Positions 9,017 to 22,808 of a stretch of 64,000 bases of DNA are shown here, piece by piece. Position 1 is the first letter of the stretch, and each line of letters begins with the position of its first letter. Under the pieces are notes generated by a model. The model ran no database searches. It saw only the letters and a program-made list of their open reading frames with translations, and was not told the origin of the DNA. This DNA comes from a bacterium (GTDB lineage Bacteria > SAR324 > NAC60-12): NCBI GenBank assembly GCA_965205865.1, contig CBDBHR010000030.1, positions 128,001 through 192,000 of the forward strand, read 5' to 3'. Both the position numbers and the translations under genes were made by a program.

Positions 9017-9471
9017 AAACGGCGCATGTCCGCTTCCAGAATTTTTTCCTCTTCGGGGCTCAGTGGAAGGTCTTCCTGCAGTTCATTCTCTTGTTTTTTT
9101 GCCCACTGCCGGCTTTTATGAAATAAGAAAACAAGCCCAGCCGCCATTGCCAATCCCGGCAAGAACCACAGCAGCAAGTTAAAACCCTGCCTCGGTGGAC
9201 TGCGCAGAATCCATTCGCCATAACGTTCAACAAAATACGCGCGAATTTCGTCATCCGTGGCGCCGGATTGCAACATATCTTTGATTTTATTGCGAATCTG
9301 TACGGAAAAACCTGCTTCCGAATCCTTCACGGACAATCCCTGACAAGTGGGACATCGGAATTGATTGAACAAATCCTTGAGACGCGATTCCATTTCAGTC
9401 TCGGAAAGTGCTCCTGCCCCAGTGGCAAAGAGCATCAGAATTGCCGCCAGTAATGTGAAAAATCGAGTCAT
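9004..9471 (-). CDS. ccmH: Cytochrome c biogenesis protein CcmH/CycL
   Basis: RCPTCQG, FVERYGEWIL..PP, C-terminal TM helix. Confidence 0.92.
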   Translation of the reverse strand: MTRFFTLLAAILMLFATGAGALSETEMESRLKDLFNQFRCPTCQGLSVKDSEAGFSVQIRNKIKDMLQSGATDDEIRAYFVERYGEWILRSPPRQGFNLLLWFLPGLAMAAGLVFLFHKSRQWAKKQENELQEDLPLSPEEEKILEADMRRFHNL

Positions 9472-9496
9472 GCGCTTACCAATGATTTGAAATAAT

Positions 9497-10051
9497 TCAA
9501 TTTTCCGGAGTGGACGATTCCAACAACGCCTGTACTTGTCGGGTCATTACTTCCTCGGTCACTCCTCCGACCTGTTTGTAGTGGACGATTCCCCGAGCGT
9601 CGATAAAAAATGTTTCCGGTACCCCATAGATGCCATAATCCAGCGCAATGCCGCCTTTCTCATCATCCAGGGCCAGAAAATATTGCTTGCCAAAGCGCTG
9701 GGCAAATGCCTGAGCCTGCAACAATTTGTCCTGAATGGCAATGCCCAGGACGTAAATCCGGTTTTGCTGTTTTTCGTAATGTTGATGATAGGCTTCCAGA
9801 ATGCCGGCCTCGGTTCGACATTCGAGGCACCAGGAAGCCCAAAAATTGAGCACCACCGGTTTTCCCTTGAGATCACTGAGCTGCAGGGAAGCGCTGCCAT
9901 CCATGGCTACCACTTTAAAATCAGGAGCAAGCTTTCCGATCAAGGGAGAAGGCACATGTTTGGGATTGGATGTCAATCCAAAAGCCAATAAGCCAATAAA
10001 ACCAAGGACTACCACAATCACGCACCAGAATTTCAGAGATTTCAATAGCAT
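9497..10051 (-). CDS. ccmG: Thiol-disulfide oxidoreductase CcmG/DsbE (TlpA family)
   Basis: NFWASWCLEC, YGVPETFFID, SPLIGK.AP; lies between ccmF and ccmH. Confidence 0.88.
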   Translation of the reverse strand: MLLKSLKFWCVIVVVLGFIGLLAFGLTSNPKHVPSPLIGKLAPDFKVVAMDGSASLQLSDLKGKPVVLNFWASWCLECRTEAGILEAYHQHYEKQQNRIYVLGIAIQDKLLQAQAFAQRFGKQYFLALDDEKGGIALDYGIYGVPETFFIDARGIVHYKQVGGVTEEVMTRQVQALLESSTPEN

Positions 10052-10075
10052 ACGGCAATACAGGAATCGATTAAT

Positions 10076-12073
10076 CTATACAGACCGGTTTGATTCGGAG
10101 ATATATTGAGTGCTGAGGGCGTCCTGCCGCACTTTCAGGGATTTGGGACGATACGTCATCGAAATAGCCACTCCCAATGTAAATAGCGGTAGAGACATCC
10201 AGGCCCACCCTACCAGCGGATTGATCCGTACTTTGAGCACTGCTATTTGCGTATCTGGGTCATCGCTGTGCACAACCAAGTACAAGTCTTCCCAAAAGCT
10301 ACGCCGGATGGCCACTTCCGTGAGGGGATCCGGTTGAGTCGGATAAAAGCTCTTTGCAGGTTTCATGACTTTCAGCAATTGGCCGTTTCGATAAACTTCA
10401 ATTACGGCTGCCCGATGGGTGGCATTGCGGACTTGGAATTCTTCCATCCCCCGGAAAACGAGTTGGTAACCTCCTACAGTTTCGGATCGATTCAATTCCA
10501 TTGAGATATCTTTTTCAATGTCATAAAAACGGCCGGCAAATCCGATGAACATCAACACCACTCCAAGATGGATTGTCAAACCTCCGTAACGCCGGGAGTT
10601 GCGCATGATGACATAAAAAAAAGCGGTCCCAATATTTACTGATAACTGCCGGGCTTTGAGTTGGGTGGCTTTGTACAATTCAAACACAATGGTCATTGTA
10701 ACAAAAAGTGCAATCCAAATAATCAAGAACGCCTGCCATTCCCGGGAGATCAGAAAGGCAAGCCCCAAAGTGCCAGCCGTGGCCAACAACATGGGAATCT
10801 GGAAGTTTTTCCGTAAACTCGCGAAGCTGGTTCGTCTCCAGGCAATCAAGGTGCCGATTCCCATCAAAAAGAACAATAGATAGCCCATTGGCGCGGTCAC
10901 AGTATTGAAGAAGGGCGCTTGAATAGAAAGTTTAGTTCCCCGGACGGCTTCTGCTAAAAGAGGAAACGTCGTACCCAATAGTACGGTAAAGGCAATTCCT
11001 ACAAAAAGGATGTTTTGAGCCAGGAAGGTGTTTTCTCGGCATAGCAAGGATTCGAGTCGGTGGTCTGATTCCAAAACACGTATGCGCTTGAAAAGTAAGA
11101 CCATGGCAATCAGCAGCACAAAAGCCAAAAATGCCAGGAAAAAAGGGCCGATCTCGGATTGAGTGAAGGAATGCACGGAGTTAACTACTCCGGAACGGGT
11201 GAGAAAAGTGCCCAGGATGCTCAAGCCGAAGGTTATGATGATCAGCACGACATTCCAGATTTTGAGCATATTCCGTTTTTCCTGTACCATCACTGAATGA
11301 AGAAAAGCGGTCCCTGTGAGCCATGGCATCAAAGCGGCATTTTCCACCGGATCCCATGCCCAATAGCCTCCCCAGCCCAATTCTTCATATGCCCATTGTC
11401 CACCTAAAATCAATCCCAGAGAGAGAAAGTACCAGGAAAACAAAGTCCATCGCCGGGTGGTGACAATCCATTCGTTGTCCAGTTTTCCCCGCATCAATCC
11501 TGCAATGGCAAAAGCAAAAGGTACGCTGAAACCAATATATCCCAAATACAAGGAGGGAGGATGGGCGATCATGGCCAAGTGTTGTAGTAGGGGATTCAAG
11601 CCCCGCCCTTCCAAAGGATTCGTCGCTTGCGGCGCAAAGGGATTGGACCACACGACCAAGAGTGCCAGCAAAAAGACCATGATGAAATTGAGGACGGCAA
11701 TGACATAGGGGATGATCTGACGGTTGGTATGCTGGTAACGGAAGGCCACTATCATGGCAAATCCACTTTGTACAAAGGCCCAGAGCAGCAAAGATCCATC
11801 CATCCCGCCCCAAAAGGCCGTGACCTTATAAAAAAGGGGCATGTCGGTGCTCGAATTCTCCCAGACATAACTTATTCGGAAATCACTGCTCACAAAGGCA
11901 TGGATCAGCGCAATGCTGGCTGCAGCCAGCAAGAAAAAATTGAAAATCGTTGCATATTGGGCGGAGCGTATCAAATTCCAGTTGTTATGCCGCACTCCGA
12001 AATATGGAACGATGCTGCCGTATAAAGCAACTGCCAATGCAACCATCATTGTCATGTAACCGATATCCGCCAT
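10076..12073 (-). CDS. ccmF: Heme lyase CcmF
   Basis: WGGYWAWDPVEN (WWD motif), HPPSLYLGY, SVHSF. Confidence 0.96.
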   Translation of the reverse strand: MADIGYMTMMVALAVALYGSIVPYFGVRHNNWNLIRSAQYATIFNFFLLAAASIALIHAFVSSDFRISYVWENSSTDMPLFYKVTAFWGGMDGSLLLWAFVQSGFAMIVAFRYQHTNRQIIPYVIAVLNFIMVFLLALLVVWSNPFAPQATNPLEGRGLNPLLQHLAMIAHPPSLYLGYIGFSVPFAFAIAGLMRGKLDNEWIVTTRRWTLFSWYFLSLGLILGGQWAYEELGWGGYWAWDPVENAALMPWLTGTAFLHSVMVQEKRNMLKIWNVVLIIITFGLSILGTFLTRSGVVNSVHSFTQSEIGPFFLAFLAFVLLIAMVLLFKRIRVLESDHRLESLLCRENTFLAQNILFVGIAFTVLLGTTFPLLAEAVRGTKLSIQAPFFNTVTAPMGYLLFFLMGIGTLIAWRRTSFASLRKNFQIPMLLATAGTLGLAFLISREWQAFLIIWIALFVTMTIVFELYKATQLKARQLSVNIGTAFFYVIMRNSRRYGGLTIHLGVVLMFIGFAGRFYDIEKDISMELNRSETVGGYQLVFRGMEEFQVRNATHRAAVIEVYRNGQLLKVMKPAKSFYPTQPDPLTEVAIRRSFWEDLYLVVHSDDPDTQIAVLKVRINPLVGWAWMSLPLFTLGVAISMTYRPKSLKVRQDALSTQYISESNRSV

Positions 12074-13451: not shown

Positions 13452-14063
13452 TTAAGTACCATGTTTTTTAGAAATGTTCATTTTTTTCTTATTGAGTGAC
13501 TTTCGGAGTATCATCCTCGCGCGAAACAATTTGCTTTTCACGGTTCCGACAGGAATATCCTGCATATTTGCTACCTCGTCGTAAGACAATCCTTCCATGG
13601 AAACCGCGACCAGAACCTCTTTCAGATCCGGGTCAAGTTGATCTATCGCTTTTTTTAAAAGGGAAAGCCGCTGTTTTTTTTCGGCGTATTCCAAGGGAGT
13701 GTCTTCTGTGGATTGATAGTTTTCCAACATCTGGTCCGAAACCATCTTGGAACGCCGTTTTCCAGCTCGGTTGATGTCATTGATGACTTTATTGCGCGCG
13801 ATCCCCAACAGCCACGTCAAAAACTTGGCGTTGCCCTGAAAGGTTTCCAGATTTTGAAAGGCGGCGATGAATGTTTCCTGCGCCAGATCTTCTGCTTGGA
13901 CCGGATCATCGATGAACTTGAGAAGAAAGCGAAACACCTGATTCCGATAGCGAGTGACCAGAATATCAAACTGATGGCGATCGCCCTTTAAAATGTCCTC
14001 GATCAGTGTCTGCTCTCCTGGCACCAGCGCCGATTTTTGCTGGGACTTTAAAGTAATGAGCAT
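13452..14063 (-). CDS. ECF RNA polymerase sigma factor (RpoE/SigW-like)
   Basis: AEDLAQETF, FLTWLLGIARN, SYDEVA...VGTVKSKLFRAR; start uncertain (14063 or 14024). Confidence 0.92.
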   Translation of the reverse strand: MLITLKSQQKSALVPGEQTLIEDILKGDRHQFDILVTRYRNQVFRFLLKFIDDPVQAEDLAQETFIAAFQNLETFQGNAKFLTWLLGIARNKVINDINRAGKRRSKMVSDQMLENYQSTEDTPLEYAEKKQRLSLLKKAIDQLDPDLKEVLVAVSMEGLSYDEVANMQDIPVGTVKSKLFRARMILRKSLNKKKMNISKKHGT

Positions 14064-14065
14064 AC

Positions 14066-14091
14066 AGACAACGGATGAGGAAATTGGTTTA
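14066..14091 (-). promoter_or_regulatory. Possible ECF-type autoregulatory promoter
   Basis: Minus strand TAAACC-N16-GTCT resembles the AAC/GTC ECF elements; it fits only if the sigma gene starts at GTG 14024. Confidence 0.25.
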
Positions 14092-14254
14092 TTGTAAAAG
14101 ACTGTTTTCGAGTCCACGGTAGGATAGCTGTCAAATGCCATTTTGTCCATAATTTCTTTGTGGGAGAGGCATTGATTCCCGTGGGAAGTGAGCAAATTAA
14201 ACAGGCTTGATCCGATTACGAATCTCTCGGTTTTCATTAACGAACCAAGAAGCG

Positions 14255-16827
14255 TTATTTATCATTCAACGTACTCTTCAGGGCATCTGTAAATTCTTTT
14301 TCGTTCTCGGAATTATAGAATGGCATGCCGATCAAACGGAACTCCTTTTCTCCAAGAGTCAGCAGCTTGCAGTTAAACTCGGCAGTGATTTCTTTCAAGA
14401 AGGTTTCCTTCCACCGGTCATGTTCTTTCAGATGTTTGCCTTTGGGTTCAATGAAAAGTTGAAAAATAGAAAACTCGCCATCCTTCCGGCGCAGAAACAG
14501 GACAAAATCCGGTTGAAAGGCTTGCCCATCGTAAAAGTTGTAGATCGTGAAATGCCTCTCGTTGCGAATCAGATAGATTTCGTCGTACTCTTCCCGCATT
14601 TGTTGCATTTGCCTGTCCAGCATTCTCACAAAGGCCTTTTCTTCGCTGGTTCCGTAAACCGTGTTGAATGCAAACCAGTCTTTCTCTGAGACGAAATGCT
14701 TGAACTGCGCATCGTCCGCGGCGTGAGGGTTGTTGGCGTCGAACTTGAGGAGCTTGTCCTTGAAGACTGCCTTTACCCAGTGACGCTGAAAATCATTCGT
14801 CCCCTCGTATTCTGTAATTTGCTGGCGGATTTCGCTCTCGATTCGACTCAATAATCCCGTCAAGGCAGCAAATTTTTCGCGCGGTTCTTCTGCCAGGCGA
14901 TAGACATTACCCTGGAAGGTGATTTCAACCCACCCAGATAATCTTTGGAGACAATGAATTCGCGCATGGACTTCAGATTGGGAAAGTAGCGTTTGAGAGA
15001 CGCGAACGTAAAGAACGGATTGCGGGCAAGGGCAGTTTGCACGACGTTGCGCTCGACGTCTGCCACTTTCATATCATGGCGGTTTTCGTCTTTCACTACC
15101 ACGTTTTTGTCTTCGCTCTCGAGCACGGCCGTTGCCCCACCGTGACCTGTGGCGATGGTGTGGACATAGTTTCTGCGCGTCACGCCAAGATCCTGAAAAG
15201 ATCGGATACCATCGTAATTTTTCGCACGGCGATTGTTGCACCAGATCACGCCAGTTTTGTAGAAATCGCTTTGTTTGAACGGTTCTTTGAGTTTGAGTTC
15301 ACGAATCACTTCCCGTTCATCCATTACTCCTTCTTTTATCAGTGCTGCGCGAATTTCGGAAATGTAGTGTGAATCGTTGATACTGTGATAATGCAACTCT
15401 TCGATGACACGCATTTCGTTTTGCAGGTCTCCATCGAATTTACGGCGGAAACGGTCGTCACTCGCGCGCAAAACAAAGGGAAAATAACGCGCGCCACGCC
15501 CGATGAGTTGCGCTTCGGAGATCGTCGTCTTGCCAATTTTATTCTTCCCTGAATCCCGACCCTCGTAACAGCGTACGATATCGAACAGGTTCAGCACGTC
15601 CCAGCCTTCATTGAGTTTCTGCACGGCGAAAACGGCGCGGATGCGGTTGTCCCGGTCTTCAAGGGTATTGACCAGAATCTGGTGGTTTTCCTTCTCCTTT
15701 TCTTCGTTGACCGAGAGGCAATGGTCTTCCCGAAATTCCCGTTTCACACGCTCCACCAACTGCGCGTCGCCGATATGGTTGTCGTCAAAGAATTGAAACG
15801 CCCTCTGCACCAATGGGATGTCCGACTTGCGGATGTGAGCAACGTCTTCCGTGCTCAGCTCATCAACAAGGCGATGAAAATTGGCTTTGTTCTCTTTGGA
15901 TTGGTCAATCGTGCGCTGGGCCTTGAACAAAATAACGGGTTTGAGGTTGGTCTGATATTTTGCCGCCACCTCCTGTTTGTACTGGCTGAGAAGCAAGGCT
16001 TGCAGAATACGCTTGTTCAGGTCGAAGTCCGATTGCACGATGACGACGTCTTTTGAAAAACCGTCGTTGCGGAATTGGAGCAAGTCATAGCGAATGATGA
16101 CCTTGTTCCGATATTTTTCCACCATCGCGGGTGTTTCGTAGTCGTGCGTTGCGGTGAATTCCAACAGGAGGTTGTCCTCGTTCTGTCCGAAAATACGCTC
16201 GACGGTGTCCTCCCAACTCCCAAACATTTCTTTTTGGGACTTGGTCGTTACGTTGATGTGATGGGCTTCGTCGGCAATCAGCGCGATGCGGCGCTTGCGG
16301 AAGTCTGCAAAAGTGATGGCGTTTTCCTTCTCGGTTTTCAGATCAGAGTGTAGTTTTTGAATCGTTGTGAAACAGATGTTGATGTCGTCCTTGTTGACGC
16401 CTTCAAAGTGATCGACGGGCGAAATGCTAACACGGTGGTTATCGATGTGAATCTCTCGATGGAACAGGTATTTGATGCTGGCGGGGTTGAAAAAGTTTTC
16501 CTTTGTCTTTTCAATGATGTTGGTGGAATTGACGAAGAAGAGAAAATTGCGATAACCCTTTGCGTACAGGTAGAGAATCAACCCGGCCATAATCAGGGTC
16601 TTGCCGCTGCCGGTCGCCATGTTGAAGAGAAAATGCAGTGGCGACTCCTTACCCGGAAAGTCCTTTTCGAGACAATGAAAGAAGCGGGTAAAGGCGTCTT
16701 TCTGATAGGGGCGCAGTTCGAACTTGGGGTTCAGATTGTCAGTGAGATAGTTGGGAATTATTGTTTTTAATCCGCCGAATTTAGAAAAGGAATCTAGTTC
16801 TTCGAATAAAAACTTATCGGCCATCAC
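14255..16827 (-). pseudogene. res: Type III restriction endonuclease Res subunit, split by a 1-bp deletion near 14926
   Basis: ORF 14860..16827 has FNMATGSGKT, DEAHH, LNEGWDV and QLIGRGAR. ORF 14255..14863 has the PD-(D/E)xK nuclease FQPDF...IEPKG. Adding one G (TTG GAA ATC) joins them into 857 aa. Confidence 0.85.
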
Positions 16828-18769
16828 ATGTCTCTATGGAGTCTCCATAAAACACCCGGTTCAACGCTTTGTCTTCTTCGTTGACGGCAAAATCCTCATC
16901 CTCGATTTCCGAAAGGTTGACGTAGAGTTGGTTCTTATTCAGCAGTTCCGCGAGCAGCTTCTTTTGTTTGTTCAACCCGTTTTCTTCTTTGCCGATTTCA
17001 ATAAAATCATGGACCGTATCTTCTGGCAGTTTCGGGTTCACATACCAATTCAAAAAGGAATTTTCAGCGATGTCTCGCCAGAGGGACACAAGCTCTTCGG
17101 ATGATTGGGCGGCTTGGATTTTGTCCATGTAAGATTCATTGTATTGCATCAGTTCGCAATAGATAAAATCGCCGCCACCTTGCCAGTTGACGGATTTGGA
17201 GATGCCCCCGGTGTCGTATACAATATCCTTGAACAGCGTTTCGTCATTTTTAGCTCTGTTCCCGACGACTTTTTTTAGCCTTTCTAGCGTGATGGTCTCC
17301 ACATAATCCATCTGTTCAACCATCATCCATTGGCGGTTCATCTTGTGGGCAACGGCGGAAGTGGTGGCGGAACCTGCGAAGAAATCAAGAACGATGTCGC
17401 TTTCGTTGGAACCCATGTGAATGATGCGTTGAAGAAGACGTTCTGGTTTAGGAGATGAAAAGGGGTTTTCTGAGAACATACTTTTGATTTCATCTTTGGC
17501 CTCATGATTATGTCCCACCTCTTTATATCCCCAAATAGTAACTGGAGTAAGACCACCCATATCTCGTAAAAAAGTCTTTCTCTGAGGGACTTGATTTTTA
17601 CCTTCTCCTAACCATATCTCATCATTTGCTTCCATTCTTTTCATACTATCATCATTGAATCTTCGGTATGTTCCTGGAGGTGGCGACCAAGTCGAACCGT
17701 TTGCAAACGTATAGGATTTTATACTCGTACCACTTTTGGCATGTAGTGGGGTTGCTTTCCAAGGACCTTTAGGATGGTTATCTGGATTAGAGTAAGCATC
17801 ATCAACAACAGAAGTTCTAAGAAGTTTATTCAACTTCCACTTCTCTTTTTTCTTAACATACAGAATGATATGGTCATGGTTGTCCGAAAAGTATTTTGCA
17901 TCATTAGCTCTGGTATATTTTTTCTGCCAGACTACATTTGCCACAAAATTCTCCCTGCCAAAAACGTCATCACATAACACTTTCAAATAGTGTGCTTCGT
18001 CGTCATCGATATTGATCCAGATTGTCCCATCGTCCCGCAACAATTCCCTCGCCACTTCCAGCCGATTTTTCATAAACGTCAGCCAACTCGAATGGTTGAA
18101 GCTGTCGTTGTAACCGAACGAATCATTTCCCGTATTGTAGGGCGGATCAATATAAATCAGCTTCACCTTGCCCCGGAATTGATTTTTCAGCGTGTGCAAG
18201 GCCAGTAAATTGTTTCCCTTGATGATCAGATTTTCCCGTATCACACCGTTTTCGTCCCGCTTGATTTCCCTAACCTTTTCTTCGCCTTCGACTGTGTGAC
18301 GTTTCCAGTTTGTCAACACTTTCGGGTCAAACATGCGGTCAATCTCGTCATGCGCCAGCACCTCATTGAAGAAAATCTCCTTGCGTTTTTCCTCTTCTTT
18401 CGTCTGTCCACCCTCCAGCACGCAGTCTTTATAGGGCCAGACGAGGGACACCTCACCCCGTTCTCGTAGGAATTTACCGTCGATGTTCAAACCGATCTTA
18501 TTGCGAAAACGGGTGTATGAACTGGCGAGGAAATTTTTGTCGGAGATGTAGTCGATGAAGGTATTGAAATTGAAGACCCAGTGCCCTTCGATCTCATCAA
18601 AGAACTTTGCCTTGACGTCGATTTCACGGAGCAGCAGCCTGACTAGTTCGTGATCGATCTTCCATGCCCGGTCGATCACCGCCGCCTTGACCAATTCACC
18701 CTCCTCGTCAACGAAGCGAGGGTCAGTTTTAAGCAGTTCGATCAGTTTTTGGTAGAAGATGTTTTGCAT
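16814..18769 (-). CDS. mod: Type III R-M methyltransferase Mod (beta-class N6-adenine MTase)
   Basis: IKGNNL, KLIYIDPPY (motif IV) preceding DFFAGSATT (motif I) with a TRD between them; overlaps the res start; AAGGA RBS before ATG 18769. Confidence 0.92.
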   Translation of the reverse strand: MQNIFYQKLIELLKTDPRFVDEEGELVKAAVIDRAWKIDHELVRLLLREIDVKAKFFDEIEGHWVFNFNTFIDYISDKNFLASSYTRFRNKIGLNIDGKFLRERGEVSLVWPYKDCVLEGGQTKEEEKRKEIFFNEVLAHDEIDRMFDPKVLTNWKRHTVEGEEKVREIKRDENGVIRENLIIKGNNLLALHTLKNQFRGKVKLIYIDPPYNTGNDSFGYNDSFNHSSWLTFMKNRLEVARELLRDDGTIWINIDDDEAHYLKVLCDDVFGRENFVANVVWQKKYTRANDAKYFSDNHDHIILYVKKKEKWKLNKLLRTSVVDDAYSNPDNHPKGPWKATPLHAKSGTSIKSYTFANGSTWSPPPGTYRRFNDDSMKRMEANDEIWLGEGKNQVPQRKTFLRDMGGLTPVTIWGYKEVGHNHEAKDEIKSMFSENPFSSPKPERLLQRIIHMGSNESDIVLDFFAGSATTSAVAHKMNRQWMMVEQMDYVETITLERLKKVVGNRAKNDETLFKDIVYDTGGISKSVNWQGGGDFIYCELMQYNESYMDKIQAAQSSEELVSLWRDIAENSFLNWYVNPKLPEDTVHDFIEIGKEENGLNKQKKLLAELLNKNQLYVNLSEIEDEDFAVNEEDKALNRVFYGDSIETCDGR

Positions 18770-18878
18770 GTTGTCGTCCTTATCACTTGTTTTTGCCAGT
18801 TCAGCATTTCGTGTCACTTGCCTATAAGTGCGACGTGCATTTTAGAGAAATATGCGAGTGATTCCGGCAGTGGGCGGA

Positions 18879-19487
18879 TCAATTGACGATCGAGTGAATG
18901 GTTTCACAAAGGTTTTGAATATATTCTACGGCCTGCACGGAGTCATTGCGGAAAATTGGCCAACGGATTCCAATTCCGGAATAGCTCGGATCCAAGTCGG
19001 CCTCATGCGTAATTTTGTTTCGACGTTCCACTATAAGTTGAAGCCGGGTTTTTACGTCTTGCACCGTCAGGCCGAGTTGCGAAGCAACAGACGGCCACAA
19101 CTCAGACGAGGAAAAGAGCCGTACCGCATCCGCTATCTTGCCTGGGTGTTGGAATGCCAAGTACCCATGTTTCTCACGGATTTCCGTCTCAAACCAGTTA
19201 TTCGTGCTTGATCCTGCGAGTCCTGTCATAGCTGCACCAATAGTCACTTGAAAGCGCTGGAATGCGTCGGTCGGAAGGTGTTTCCCATGGTATACTTCTA
19301 ACATTCCAAAGCGCACTATTTCGTGGATGTAGTGGTCAAGAGAACTAACGGCCAATACAATTTGCGTGCGTAAAAGATCGCTCGCATCCAAGACGGGGGT
19401 GGTCAATTGATCGAGTGCCTCATACAATCCACCAATGGCGCGTACTCGTTCAATATTTTCACGAAATTGTTGAATCGTTGCGAGCAT
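18879..19487 (-). CDS. HEPN-domain protein (putative RNase effector)
   Basis: Predicted all-alpha, 202 aa; N-terminal LAVSSLDHYIHE helix and Rx4H motif RNKITH (RRNKITHEAD). Confidence 0.8.
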   Translation of the reverse strand: MLATIQQFRENIERVRAIGGLYEALDQLTTPVLDASDLLRTQIVLAVSSLDHYIHEIVRFGMLEVYHGKHLPTDAFQRFQVTIGAAMTGLAGSSTNNWFETEIREKHGYLAFQHPGKIADAVRLFSSSELWPSVASQLGLTVQDVKTRLQLIVERRNKITHEADLDPSYSGIGIRWPIFRNDSVQAVEYIQNLCETIHSIVN

Positions 19488-20541
19488 GATCGATGAGCTT
19501 TATTATTTTATCCGCACCGTCGGCGTACAAATCCCGAAACCGATGCATGGATTCCCTAGTTGTTTCAAGCACTACCCCTGTTTGTTCAAGTTGCTCGTCA
19601 TTTAAGCCAAAAACCGGCGCTTGGTGTTTTTGTGAAAGAGCAATCAGACTATTGAAGTCTGACATCTGAATGAGCGGTTGTCCTATTTGCAAGTTAACCT
19701 CTTCGTATACCCGACCTGGAAGTAACATATTATTTTCATTTAAAACAGGAATGAGCTTTGTCTTTATTCCTTTCTCTATTTCCTTGACCCACTCCTGGAA
19801 TGCGGCAGAAGGAAAATTTCCCTCTCGCAATCGATACTTCTGAACAATCGTTCCGAGAAACTTGGGGTTCTTATCAGGGAAAGGGTAACTTGCGTTCTTT
19901 AAAACAGGTAATGATTGTGCTTGTTTTGCCCAAGCTGACCACTTGGGCAACACGGATGCAAGGCTATTCGTTGCCATTACTGAGAAATAGTCCAGAGTCA
20001 TTGGTACGATAAAATAGTCACTCGTCATTATCAAATTTTGGTTTATCGGACTCAAGCTCGGATTCATATCCACCAGAATGAAATCAGCGTTGTACTTTTC
20101 AGCAGTCAGAGAAAAGAGGTGGTGCAGGGCTCCGGGCAAATTCTGGAGAGTCACCAGTGAGCCGGAAAGTTCCTGAGCAATACCCAAGATGACTTCGTAT
20201 TCAGCGAGACCAATGTGACCTGGTAAAAGGTGCATGTCAGGCTGGCCGTTGATTGATTCACAGACCACAGGTTCAATAGCCACTGGTCGAGATTCAAAAG
20301 CTGGTGAAAGACCGTCCCGGATGTTTCGCACTTCATCCGAAACATAAATTGATTTAAAATCCTCATTAAAATCCTCGAATCCCTTAAATCCGAGGACCAT
20401 GCCCGTGAGGTTACACTGGGGGTCGCAGTCGGCGATGATAACCCTCTTCCCCTTGTTTGCCAGCATCCAGCCGAGGTTGAAGGTGGTTGTTGTCTTGCCG
20501 ACACCACCCTTATGATTGAAAAGTGAAATTTGTTTCACCAT
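19459..20541 (-). CDS. ParA/Soj-family (SIMIBI) ATPase, long non-partitioning type
   Basis: FNHKGGVGKTT, DCDPQCNLT, ILVDMNPS; AAGGAG RBS before ATG 20541; stop overlaps the HEPN gene by 29 bp; no parB. Confidence 0.88.
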   Translation of the reverse strand: MVKQISLFNHKGGVGKTTTTFNLGWMLANKGKRVIIADCDPQCNLTGMVLGFKGFEDFNEDFKSIYVSDEVRNIRDGLSPAFESRPVAIEPVVCESINGQPDMHLLPGHIGLAEYEVILGIAQELSGSLVTLQNLPGALHHLFSLTAEKYNADFILVDMNPSLSPINQNLIMTSDYFIVPMTLDYFSVMATNSLASVLPKWSAWAKQAQSLPVLKNASYPFPDKNPKFLGTIVQKYRLREGNFPSAAFQEWVKEIEKGIKTKLIPVLNENNMLLPGRVYEEVNLQIGQPLIQMSDFNSLIALSQKHQAPVFGLNDEQLEQTGVVLETTRESMHRFRDLYADGADKIIKLIDHARNDSTIS

Positions 20542-20664
20542 TTGATCAACTCCTTTCAAGTTACTTTAACAACTTGATGGTTAAAAATGTATGCATCGTA
20601 ATTGTGGGGGATGTGTTTTGAGCAAGTTAATCAGTTTCTCATTGAGTTTTATACATGTTGGGTC

Positions 20665-21575
20665 CTATTTCATCTCCTCATCAGCTCTCGCCAATAAAAG
20701 AATGTTTGAGGCAGTCAAGTGAAGCGCGTAGGCGGTTAAGGATTCCGGAACAGAGACTATTCCGGTTCCCTGTCCGTGCCCCGACTTTTGATTACGAATC
20801 GTGGGAACGCCAGCCTCCAACGTGCTCCTCAGACCCGTGAAATGCGACTCCATGAAGACTGGAATCAACTTGTACTGGTATACAATGTCAATCAGATACC
20901 TGGCGGAATCTTTATTACCGTATTTCCATCCTCTTTTTTTACAAATCGTTTTGAGACAACTCTCGAATGCTTTGAGGCAGTCGTTCAGGCACTCTTTATA
21001 CTTCTCGCTCGATAGTGCCCGTGCGCGCTTAAAAATTCCGTATTCGCTCCTTTGTACATCGGTGCGGAAAGCACACTCAATGCGGGCTTTATCACTTCAG
21101 AGTGGATCAACTGGGAATCCACCCTGATGATTTGGCCGGATTCGTACTGGAACCCCACGCCTTGTTCATGGAACCGGAAATTCAATTCATCAATCGCATT
21201 GTCAAATATTAGTCTATCTCTTTCTTGGAGGTTGTCATTTAGAAATTGGAATGAAAGTTCAATGACATCAATTACTTCTTCGACTTCCTTTGTTTGCAGA
21301 AAGAAGTTGGCGACTGACTCGAAGTCTGAATCATGGGGTTTGCCAAGCGTGAAGACACCGTATTCACGGCACAAGGCTTTGTGGATGAACACAAATTCGT
21401 GAGCATTGCTGTCGGGACCCCAATTGGGATTATAGTAGAGTTCCCCGAAAGCATCCTCCAAGATCTGGACAACTTGAACCCGTAATTGGTTGGGAATGGA
21501 CTCGTATTGGTACACGTCGGGAACTTCACCCCGACTTCGTTTCTGGCGTTTTGAGAAAAGGTCAGTGACCGGCAT
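20665..21575 (-). pseudogene. AbiJ-like abortive infection protein (STM4504/CBY_0614-like, C-terminal HEPN), frameshifted near 21007
   Basis: N-terminus FSKRQ...PDVYQY..IP..LRVQ. After HYR a 1-bp deletion switches frame; the other frame continues EKYKECLNDCLKAFES...TIRNQKSGHGQG (HEPN-like R..H). Restored length 303 aa. Confidence 0.75.
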
Positions 21576-21668
21576 ATTACACTCTTCCCCCGCGATTTTT
21601 ATATCGTTGTACTTGAATCTAGGTATGAAAGCCTTGACCTGTATTTATACCACTTCCCCCTCCTCATT

Positions 21669-22808
21669 TCAAGGCATTGGGGATCGGAAACGGCCGGTGC
21701 AGATTTGCTGGAACAGATTTTGAAAGAGGCAGCGCGCTTCTTTTGCATTGTATTTGAATTGCAGATCGAGATCCGCCATTCGAGTCACGATTTGTTCCAA
21801 TTCTTGCAGAGTGAAGGAGCGTGCTTGAGCCATCAAGCGTTTGCCCAGGAAGGGATGGATCTTGAGTTTGGGCAGGATCACAGAGGGGGGGAGATCTTGC
21901 TGTTGGAAGTAATGGATGCTCAATAACCTGCGAAATTGCTGGGAGACCAGGACAAACAAACCGACATGCCCCGAGGGGGTTTCCAGTAAGATTTGATCCA
22001 GTGTTTCCAGAGCCCCCACCAGATCTTTATGAGAGAGTGAGTGGGTGATGCGAAAAATAGAGAAGGACTTGGCGCCCCGCACGTGTTCGAGCAGTGTTTC
22101 CTCATTCAAGAGTAGCGCATTTTTGCGAGGATGATCCCCTTCGACAGACTGTAAAGACAACAGGGAGAGTTTTTCTAATTCCTGGTCCAGGATGTTGAGA
22201 TCAATGCCAAGCAATTCTATGAGCAATCGGGCAAGCTGTGGCGTTATCGAGATTTGTTTCTGCCGACCTCGGGCGATGATCCAGGCAATGGGTTTATCGT
22301 CGTCATAGGCCATAAATTTTTGGATACTGCCCCGGAGCTTTATGGTCTTCAGCAGAGGGGAACTGAGATCCTGCTCGCGCGTGGCCACCGCAGTCAGGAT
22401 GAAAAAACAGGAATCCGGAGGTGTGGTAAGGTACTTCAGCAGTGTATGAAACAAACGGTTGCCGGACAGCGTGGTCGGCTGAGTGATGACGGAATCCACA
22501 ACCTCGCGTTGGCGTTTCGCCGGACTGTTTTGTTTTCCCCGAGGCTGTTTCAGTTTTTCCAAATGATCCAAACGAATTATCTTGCGATCCGACAAAAAAG
22601 GCAGCGTGTCACAACTCAAGCAAAAGTCGTCCACTTTTTCATTTGCGCCTTCACTGTCGTCCTTGAGCAGTTCCGTGACGTCAAACCGTTGCAATGTGAA
22701 TTCCACATCGCGGTCCTCCAGAAGGGTCTGAATCAGCGTGGCCGCAGATTCGTCGATCTGCAATTGCTGATTGCCATAAAGCAATTGAATTGGTTTTGGA
22801 GTCGTCAT
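21669..22808 (-). CDS. holA: DNA polymerase III delta subunit
   Basis: LLYG, TLPFLSDRK.I, LDQELEKL, HPF...and DLQFK C-terminal pattern. Confidence 0.85.
   Translation of the reverse strand: MTTPKPIQLLYGNQQLQIDESAATLIQTLLEDRDVEFTLQRFDVTELLKDDSEGANEKVDDFCLSCDTLPFLSDRKIIRLDHLEKLKQPRGKQNSPAKRQREVVDSVITQPTTLSGNRLFHTLLKYLTTPPDSCFFILTAVATREQDLSSPLLKTIKLRGSIQKFMAYDDDKPIAWIIARGRQKQISITPQLARLLIELLGIDLNILDQELEKLSLLSLQSVEGDHPRKNALLLNEETLLEHVRGAKSFSIFRITHSLSHKDLVGALETLDQILLETPSGHVGLFVLVSQQFRRLLSIHYFQQQDLPPSVILPKLKIHPFLGKRLMAQARSFTLQELEQIVTRMADLDLQFKYNAKEARCLFQNLFQQICTGRFRSPMP

Follow-up and report, generated by a model that had tools for sequence, protein, structure and literature searches.

HEPN ribonucleases (RNases) are frequent effectors of abortive infection, and how they are silenced and triggered is known for few of them. 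They work as dimers in which the Rx4-6H motifs of the two protomers face each other. PrrC and RloC are NTPase-controlled anticodon nucleases of the HEPN type that are found beside restriction-modification (R-M) genes, where they form a second line of defense. The locus considered here comes from a bacterium of the SAR324 lineage (GTDB lineage Bacteria; SAR324; NAC60-12) and joins a gene for a ParA/Soj-type ATPase to a gene for a HEPN-domain protein. It lies at 18879 to 20541 of a 64,000-nucleotide stretch of DNA (NCBI GenBank assembly GCA_965205865.1, contig CBDBHR010000030.1, positions 128,001 to 192,000 of the forward strand), which is called the window; coordinates below count from its first letter. 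The ParA-HEPN pair is an obligate, translationally coupled and self-contained two-gene unit without ParB, and it is horizontally mobile, given its patchy distribution, its insertion as part of an island, and its carriage by plasmids and prophages. The unit is probably a module for abortive infection and/or addiction in which the ATPase switches a HEPN RNase.

Pairs of this kind have been predicted twice by computation. Anantharaman et al. (2013; PMC3710099) predicted a ParA/Soj-HEPN dyad as a toxin-antitoxin (TA) system and proposed that the ParA/Soj ATPase beside the HEPN gene is an antitoxin that acts via a conformational change or phosphorylation. A table in that paper lists the RiboL-PSP-HEPN family as "fused to endoRNase L-PSP; operon with ParB". 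A preprint by Li, Burroughs and Aravind (bioRxiv 10.64898/2026.10.19.760177, 22 Oct 2026) describes two-gene "ParA-effector systems" of the ConB1 ParA clade that are widespread in prokaryotes and in which a HEPN RNase is effector type (v). In the authors' proposal, ParA intercepts or sequesters the DNA of an invader, and failure of this interception sets the effector free; they also describe the C-terminal extensions of ParA as rapidly evolving.

The two genes of the window and their overlap are as follows.

18879..19487, reverse strand: gene for a HEPN-domain protein (predicted RNase) of 202 aa, RiboL-PSP-HEPN family, from a PF18735 match and a conserved motif
19459..20541, reverse strand: gene for a ParA/Soj-type (SIMIBI) ATPase of 360 aa with an extended C-terminal region, from AAA_31, CbiA and Foldseek matches
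19459..19487, reverse strand: overlap of the ParA 3' end with the HEPN 5' end, 29 nt, from the open reading frame (ORF) coordinates

The ParA ORF spans 19459-20559 and gives a protein of 366 aa if it begins at a TTG codon and of 360 aa if it begins at the ATG at 20541. The sequence supports the ATG as the favored start because homologs begin with MVKQ or MAKQ and a Shine-Dalgarno-like AAGGAG lies upstream. The 29-nt overlap suggests translational coupling of the two genes. The initial annotation, which was made from the DNA letters, had named a 360-aa ParA-family ATPase with KGGVGKTT, a 202-aa protein with an RNKITH HEPN motif, and a 29-bp overlap between them, and each of these proved accurate (ORFs and motifs; AAA_31 at 6e-29 and PF18735 at 5.7e-9).

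The strongest evidence that the two genes form a unit comes from homologous loci. Eighty loci were kept for analysis; the overlap counts rest on the 72 in which both N-termini are covered, eight loci being omitted from the overlap count for truncation, and one locus in which HEPN is cut to 52 aa (L059) was omitted from the identity and Mantel analyses only. A ParA homolog lies directly upstream of the HEPN gene and on the same strand in 78 of the 80 loci, which represent many phyla, and the remaining two are cut by contig ends, beginning 43-46 nt before the HEPN match. This pairing is beyond chance, since it recurs in 78 of 80 loci and both proteins have hundreds of close homologs. ParA in the 78 loci is 48-81% identical over full-length matches; in four loci truncated by the end of a contig, the partial ParA matches fall as low as 34%. 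In 66 of these 72 loci the two genes overlap at the ParA stop and the HEPN start; the overlap measures 17 nt in 36 loci, 8 nt in 26, 13 nt in two, and 29 nt and 1 nt in one locus each. In the six others a gap separates the genes, of 1-6 nt in three and of 80-855 nt in three. ATG serves as the HEPN start codon in 71 of the 72. Pairwise identities of ParA and HEPN are correlated (Mantel r 0.74, reached by none of 999 permutations), a correlation that can arise from shared descent alone and that shows co-inheritance, not contact. No conserved third gene accompanies the pair: the 527 neighbors within four genes fall into 443 clusters, none of which is widely shared. The claim of a ParA/HEPN pair lacking parB thus extends to an obligate, coupled unit, and no ParB family match occurs in the island or among 243 neighbor representatives of homologous loci. 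The adjacent ParB and parS repeats that define a ParABS system do not accompany the pair.

The family is widespread and patchy. The HEPN protein has 446 matches in a 90%-clustered collection, of which the best 120 share at least 62% identity. The best 120 ParA matches are 68-99% identical, and the few with a named source are from Brocadiaceae, Desulfobaccales and Cyanobium. The HEPN profile collects 1,502 clusters at E <= 1e-3 from a 50%-clustered library (891 at <= 1e-10 and 253 at <= 1e-30), nearly all of them about 200 aa long, also among the best 150. At least 443 genome stretches in a set of one-genome-per-species contigs encode a relative. The taxa with a relative, among the matches listed, are Poribacteria, Latescibacterota, Chloroflexota, Planctomycetota, Cyanobacteria, Acidobacteriota, Pseudomonadota and one Hadarchaeota metagenome-assembled genome (MAG), and they include many filamentous or aggregate-forming lineages. 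The genome of the window itself has one copy of the HEPN gene, which was found in none of 40 relatives, namely one from its genus, 23 others from its family and 16 others from its order, some of these genomes being incomplete.

The ATPase belongs to the ParA-type families by Pfam (AAA_31 at 6e-29, CbiA at 2.6e-15). ATPases of the ParA/MinD group form ATP-sandwich dimers by means of a signature lysine, and all catalytic motifs of the group are present, as expected for the ParA-family ATPase that had been annotated. Across 72 sequences, K11 (the signature lysine), G12, G13, V14, K16 (the P-loop lysine of the deviant Walker A), T17, T18, D38, D40, Q42 and D158 (Walker B) show at least 97% conservation, and many other positions are conserved too. 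Conservation is equally high at the clade marks N9 (the Asn before Walker A), V14 (within it) and Q42 (after DxD). The predicted structure (predicted local distance difference test (pLDDT) score 75.5, predicted template modeling (pTM) score 0.82) matches Soj/ParA structures in Foldseek at E 6e-12 to 1e-9, including 3pg5 at 6e-12, Soj 2bek at 7e-11, Helicobacter pylori Soj at 6e-10 and ParA2 at 7e-10, and the ParA profile finds 3pg5 (1.1e-22) and Soj (2.9e-16) in the PDB. The closest solved relative, 3pg5, is an uncharacterized 361-aa Corynebacterium diphtheriae protein, DIP2308, from structural genomics. Conservation of ParA drops in its C-terminal half (major-residue frequencies of 0.56-0.73, versus 0.84-0.88 in the core), and this half is not fast-evolving. 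Residues 110-129 are modeled below pLDDT 50, and the blocks covering 101-140 are among the most conserved (major-residue frequency 0.85-0.86). Because this segment is conserved yet of low confidence in the monomer model, in which it appears unfolded, it may be a surface for interaction.

The small protein is accepted as a member of the HEPN family because its Pfam match and its motif agree with exhaustive structural matches, and its RNase activity is predicted. It matches PF18735 (HEPN_RiboL-PSP) at E 5.7e-9 with 36.6 bits, above the Pfam gathering threshold of 28.4, over residues 11-201 and profile positions 3-189 of 191. PF18735 is its sole Pfam match at E <= 0.01, and the precomputed annotations of close homologs are all PF18735. 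The catalytic motif is RRNKITHE, in which R156-N-K-I-T-H161 forms the Rx4H with R155 just before it. R155, R156, N157, H161, E162 and D164 are conserved in at least 97% of the 72 sequences, as are D37, R40, S48-D51, H55, R104, H107 and W131; such an invariant Rx4H points to an active nuclease. AlphaFold models the protein as a bundle of eight helices (pLDDT 83, pTM 0.80). Nine of the ten best matches of this model in VIA-align, an exhaustive search, are HEPN or HEPN-like proteins over about 120 residues at Z 10.1-8.4, values that lie below about 13 and are not decisive for helical bundles. Matches include 1ufb (10.1), 2hsb (9.9), HepT 5yep (9.5), the sacsin HEPN domain and HI0074 (8.8 each), an AMPylated HEPN toxin (8.8), 7ae2 (8.6), the C-terminal domain of AbiA (8.1), AbiV (7.1) and Csm6 (7.0). 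The HEPN family profile finds no meaningful match to solved HEPN chains among the PDB sequences. In a dedicated search, which is weak evidence, no longer or fused HEPN forms scored. The HEPN identity proposed in the initial annotation is thereby borne out by family, invariant motif and a HEPN-like predicted fold.

Contigs from four public sequencing runs show variation within the pair. In two runs (X3, X7), two long contigs meet at 19448-19476, around the ParA/HEPN overlap, and in the other two (X1, X5) one contig stops at 19476-19484, also in the overlap. Alternative letters occur at 19478-19483 near contig ends in all four runs. The contig ends at 19448-19484 suggest that the assembly graph branches at this point, with a variant ParA C-terminus or junction present in the population. 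Within the HEPN gene, 19071-19201 differs from contigs of other samples at 16 positions in 130 nt, 13 of them third codon positions, and the remainder of the island differs far less between samples. This segment looks like a recombination patch under purifying selection.

The pair resembles several described systems. As in the 2013 dyad, an ATPase gene adjoins the HEPN gene and takes the place that the minimal nucleotidyltransferase (MNT) has in MNT-HEPN modules, and in that dyad too the HEPN protein is the proposed RNase toxin. The HEPN protein of the 2013 dyad belongs to the MAE_18760 family whereas the window protein matches only PF18735 and lacks an L-PSP fusion or ParB, in a comparison by Pfam matches at E <= 0.01. 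Like the ParA-effector systems, the pair is a two-gene unit of ParA plus an effector (78 of 80 loci, no third gene). The clade marks named in the text of the preprint (the Walker A Asn and Val, and DxDxQ) are all present and conserved in the window ParA, as compared with that text, and the filamentous or aggregate-forming taxa accord with its remark on multicellularity. Pairing with a PF18735-type HEPN protein is not spelled out in the available text of either source, and the supplements of the preprint could well list it. The ParA-HeH systems cited by the preprint (HepS, from a Salmonella prophage) likewise are antiphage loci in which an ATPase of the ParA clade is encoded together with a HEPN nuclease that targets tRNA. 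However, ParA and HeH form their core and HEPN is an optional third gene, whereas in the window family HEPN is the obligate partner and there is no third gene. HepS (9oik) is among the structural matches of the window HEPN model, at Z 5.9. A 2026 anti-plasmid preprint (Ishtar) concerns other HEPN proteins and was set aside.

In the type VII TA system HepT-MntA, a small HEPN RNase with an Rx4-6H motif is neutralized by the product of the adjacent upstream gene, as may be the case here, and the window HEPN model superposes on HepT structures (5yep at Z 9.5, 8xdj at 8.8, 7ae2 at 8.6). The window partner is a ParA-type ATPase (AAA_31) and not a minimal nucleotidyltransferase, so AMPylation is not expected, and the window HEPN protein has no match at the sequence level to solved HEPN chains. 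No family of the MNT type occurs among the matches of neighbors within two genes on either side. PrrC and RloC share with the window an NTPase and a HEPN-type RNase beside R-M genes. In PrrC, however, an ABC-type ATPase is fused to the nuclease and encoded in a Type I operon, whereas the window ParA is a separate protein, the R-M system is of Type III, and the link to it is not conserved.

The immediate surroundings of the pair consist of an island of five genes.

14246..21668, both strands not distinguished: island of 7,423 bp with five genes (res, mod, HEPN, ParA, AbiJ-like), from comparison with the same-genus genome G001
16814..18817, reverse strand: mod, Type III R-M methyltransferase, intact (PADLOC MTase_III 4.3e-179; Pfam N6_N4_Mtase and TypeIII_RM_meth)
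14255..16827, reverse strand: res, Type III R-M restriction subunit, in two ORFs (PADLOC REase_III positions 26-638 and 721-862)
20665..21575, reverse strand: AbiJ_NTD4 plus DUF7014 gene (STM4504/CBY_0614 family), frameshifted (AbiJ_NTD4 4e-28)

The island sits between the start of an extracytoplasmic function (ECF)-type sigma factor gene and the stop of holA. The segment 14246-21668 is an acquired insertion because in G001, the only genome of the same genus compared, the flanks that match 14245 and 21669 lie 67 bp apart. No convincing terminal repeats occur at the island ends, no repeat array or integrase was found at the island, and no tRNA lies in the 64-kb window. The island and its flanks are present in contigs of runs from four different studies. 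The placement of the pair about 110 bp upstream of mod on the same strand, between an AbiJ-like gene and mod/res, is as annotated; the likely mod start is an ATG near 18769, which leaves about 110 nt from the HEPN stop. The neighbors are those that had been named, except that res reads as two ORFs and the AbiJ-like gene is frameshifted. A consensus scan for promoters and terminators over 14000-22000 gave counts no higher than in shuffled sequence and is uninformative on operon structure.

The two res ORFs are 14860-16827 (REase_III 4.6e-120) and 14255-14863 (7e-22), and a three-frame reading places the frame change near 14925-14935. Contigs of the four public runs all carry one extra base at 14925-14929; X3, X5 and X7 have an extra C after 14925 at full depth, and X1 has three one-base variants whose depths sum to the total. 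Since other contigs carry the extra base and the res homolog in a Poribacteria MAG chromosome (locus L003) is a single ORF of 876 aa, the res frameshift is probably an assembly error or a rare or minor variant. The suggestion of a decaying island with two flanking frameshifts was therefore dropped for res. The AbiJ-like gene consists of an N-terminal ORF at 20985-21575 (NCBIfam NF046078 at 7e-60, profile positions 1-179 of 281) and a DUF7014 part in another frame at 20668-21078 (2.5e-37). Its break appears real because no indel is listed near 20990-21010 in the four runs and an X1 contig is an exact match over 20470-22000. The island is thus an acquired defense islet of three systems of which the AbiJ-like one is broken, in keeping with the defense setting that had been claimed for the locus.

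The Type III genes have accompanied the pair in one other locus of the 80. In L003, ParA is 77.5% identical to the window gene at the nucleotide level, res is 65% and 53% identical in amino acids to the two window ORFs, and an unbroken alignment at 71% nucleotide identity extends from the HEPN gene across the spacer and over the first 220 codons of mod. The gene order is res-ParA-HEPN-mod in L003 versus ParA-HEPN-mod-res in the window. The L003 mod is interrupted at 9351-11100 by an insertion with a DDE-transposase helix-turn-helix gene, and a 385-nt gap separates ParA from HEPN, unlike the usual overlap. Thus, the four genes moved together, in permuted order, in this sub-lineage, which is co-transfer and not functional dependence. 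The pair is one tenant of the 7.4-kb islet that has traveled with the adjacent Type III R-M system without depending on it. Close homologs of the window mod and res occur in one of the 80 loci, this one, and in a further locus (L023) a mod of 40% identity lies some 6 kb off.

The genomic company of homologs was assessed by a Pfam scan of the two nearest genes of at least 100 aa on each side of the pair (243 cluster representatives) and of 150 random genes at least 4.5 kb from the pair in the same loci. Families of defense, R-M, TA and mobile elements were flagged at E <= 1e-8 from a list of the analysts' own. Flagged genes make up 30 of 243 near neighbors versus 7 of 150 distant ones (odds ratio 2.9, Fisher p = 0.012), a comparison in which the near and far sets were dereplicated differently, the flags are a matter of judgment, and the control is conservative in that genes 4.5-8 kb away possibly lie in the same island. 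The flagged near neighbors fall in at least 22 of the 80 loci. They include Type III mod/res and an insertion sequence (L003), an Eco57I-type enzyme (L006), Cas1 (L068), an ApaLI endonuclease (L073), RhuM-Fic and Schlafen (L079), genes of the PIN, MqsR and HicB families, resolvases and transposases. The other neighbors are ordinary (SufBD, MurB, GroEL, AlaRS, IleRS, citrate synthase and the like) or have no Pfam match. R-M neighbors alone are 9 of 243 near versus 3 of 150 far (p = 0.55). The association of the pair with conflict and mobile genes is therefore real but moderate, with no general tie to R-M. Of the linkages that had been expected for homologs, the one to defense loci stands as a moderate enrichment, with most loci lying among housekeeping genes, and the one to R-M did not emerge.

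Two individual loci deserve mention. In L067 (2924-8885), the pair lies between hsdM-hsdS and a RhuM-family gene in a Type I R-M locus, which is where PrrC-like genes sit in other genomes. In L011 (4779-6224), from a Syntrophus MAG, a gene for the RNA ligase RtcB lies two genes upstream of the pair. RtcB seals RNA ends of the type that HEPN RNases leave, and its presence in this single locus may be chance.

Mobile replicons carry distant members of the family. Pairs whose HEPN protein has 31-37% identity occur on 13 Burkholderia plasmids, 12 of them of B. glumae, and on one Streptomyces plasmid. On plasmid NZ_CP021160.1, an "AAA family ATPase" that is 41% identical to the window ParA abuts a "HEPN domain-containing protein". 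A Pf1-like filamentous prophage of Pseudomonas (AY324828.1) encodes a 343-aa ParA-like ORF, 36% identical to the window ParA, that overlaps by 8 nt an unannotated 175-aa ORF matching PF18735 (L090 5001-5528), and the two lie at the accessory end of the prophage next to the att site. The prophage pair is a distant member (30-36% identical) that differs from the window pair in its unannotated HEPN ORF, in a shorter C-terminus and in its prophage setting as opposed to a chromosomal islet. The ParA-like gene of AY324828.1 is annotated from an internal start (317 aa); the full 343-aa ORF includes Walker A. Pf5 has been described as having a unique gene of unknown function with a ParA nucleotide-binding domain (PMC7379572). 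Two IMG/VR contigs carry a relative, and both window proteins match PHROG families, HEPN the family phrog_13503 (9.8e-35) and ParA a "ParA-like partition protein" family.

The favored reading of the pair as an ATPase-switched RNase module draws on its intact catalytic motifs, obligate adjacency and order, co-divergence, lack of a third gene, patchiness and partial defense context. The HEPN ribonuclease would be the effector of a self-contained mobile conflict module, and the ParA-type ATPase, translated in a coupled manner from their shared mRNA, would be its nucleotide-dependent switch. ParA would bind the HEPN protein, and its ATP-driven dimerization, possibly on invading DNA in line with the 2026 preprint, would decide whether two HEPN protomers form a composite Rx4H site; such control could take the form of restraint or of activation. 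The active RNase would cut tRNA, rRNA or mRNA and stop growth, and this arrest would abort the spread of a phage or plasmid or kill cells that lose the cassette. A more specific version makes ParA an assembly switch, both sensor and activator, whose ATP sandwich dimer on invading DNA joins two HEPN protomers that are harmless alone, with the nearly invariant ParA residues 105-137, of low confidence in the monomer model, as docking or relay surface, and with the module moving together with Type III R-M as a four-gene unit. In this full form the proposal is unlikely.

Several points weigh against the RNase module as a conflict system, in addition to the limits already given for the structural scores and for the neighbor comparison. 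Pairwise identity across phyla averages 0.62 in ParA and 0.52 in HEPN, which is unusually high for immune genes, and the strong conservation of the window family differs from the rapid evolution that the preprint describes for C-terminal extensions in ParA-effector systems. No more than roughly a quarter to a third of the loci have a gene flagged as defense, TA or mobile element within two genes of the pair. The RNase activity is read from the motif, and Foldseek with the HEPN model gave nothing in the PDB at E <= 0.001, its weak rows including HEPN toxins at probability 0.5-0.8. Thus, of the Foldseek check that had been recommended, the ParA half returned Soj/ParA and the HEPN half no match at that threshold. 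PADLOC-DB v2 has no model for the HEPN protein or the pair, and ParA matches its PDC-M28B model over only 38 P-loop residues. No experimental work on a ParA-HEPN pair was found in the literature searched, from which most subscription journals were outside scope. This much agrees with the earlier claim of an uncharacterized module. The ParA plus HEPN dyad as a kind, however, is already predicted in the available text of the 2013 and October 2026 sources, and the novelty once seen in it is weaker than thought.

The most serious competitor is a pure TA or addiction system, in which HEPN is a constitutively active RNase toxin and ParA an antitoxin, by sequestration or phosphorylation, that together stabilize islands, plasmids and prophages. 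This is the explicit proposal made for the 2013 dyad (PMC3710099), although that prediction concerned the MAE_18760 family and not PF18735. The order with the neutralizer first, the overlap and the autonomy of two genes fit TA logic, and the pair is carried by conjugative plasmids and in the accessory end of a filamentous prophage, locations in which TA pairs are often seen (parDE in Pf prophages, PMC7549136). Its scatter among housekeeping genes is also like that of many TA loci. However, a 360-aa ATPase with fully conserved catalytic and dimerization residues would be costly for a mere plug, and there is no evidence of a labile antitoxin. Pure addiction is thus possible but clearly less probable than the switched module, and it is not exclusive of a role in defense.

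The neighboring Type III genes raise a further reading, proposed in the initial annotation, that the pair is an R-M guardian like PrrC that monitors the Type III enzyme and unleashes the RNase upon phage inhibition of restriction. The same-strand position just upstream of mod, with no terminator between them in the uninformative scan, the linkage of res, ParA, HEPN and mod in L003 with its aligned HEPN-mod junction, and R-M neighbors in a few other loci such as L067 (hsdS/RhuM) would all be expected of a guardian. Yet the neighborhood of the pair shows no enrichment of R-M genes, in most loci none lies within two genes of it, the Type III genes of the island recur only in L003 (the more distant mod of L023 lies 6 kb off), and the ParA-type protein is a separate polypeptide instead of the ABC-type N-domain that is fused to the nuclease in PrrC. 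Guarding of the R-M enzyme is therefore improbable. Marginally less probable still is a function outside conflict, either RNA processing positioned by ParA or plasmid and prophage partition in which HEPN is an RNA-binding or adaptor partner that replaces ParB. High conservation across phyla, the many loci in housekeeping surroundings, the PHROG partition-protein match of ParA and the presence on plasmids and a prophage that need maintenance all accord with such a function. It fits poorly with the patchiness of the pair (0 of 40 relatives), its arrival by insertion within an island and an invariant catalytic Rx4H that argues for an active nuclease; moreover, no centromere-binding protein or repeat array is seen, and chromosomal copies lie far from any replicon function. 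The switched RNase module is the reading that remains favored: the description in the initial annotation was accurate, and its defense interpretation is plausible and partly supported.

A ParA-type dimerization ATPase as the controller of a HEPN RNase has been predicted, and no test of it was found in the literature searched. The pair is a good entry point to the question of how HEPN effectors are controlled because it is compact (two genes, about 1.7 kb) and widespread (at least 443 genome stretches, and 891 clusters at E <= 1e-10), and the high conservation of the family makes it suited to structural work. If the four-gene version of the proposal were true, the Type III R-M system and the pair would form a restriction-plus-suicide package in one transferable piece. 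A distant relative also lies in the Pf-type prophages of Pseudomonas, a well-studied laboratory system. Thus, the ParA-HEPN pair, being small, widespread and conserved and having a distant Pf-prophage relative, is an attractive experimental target.

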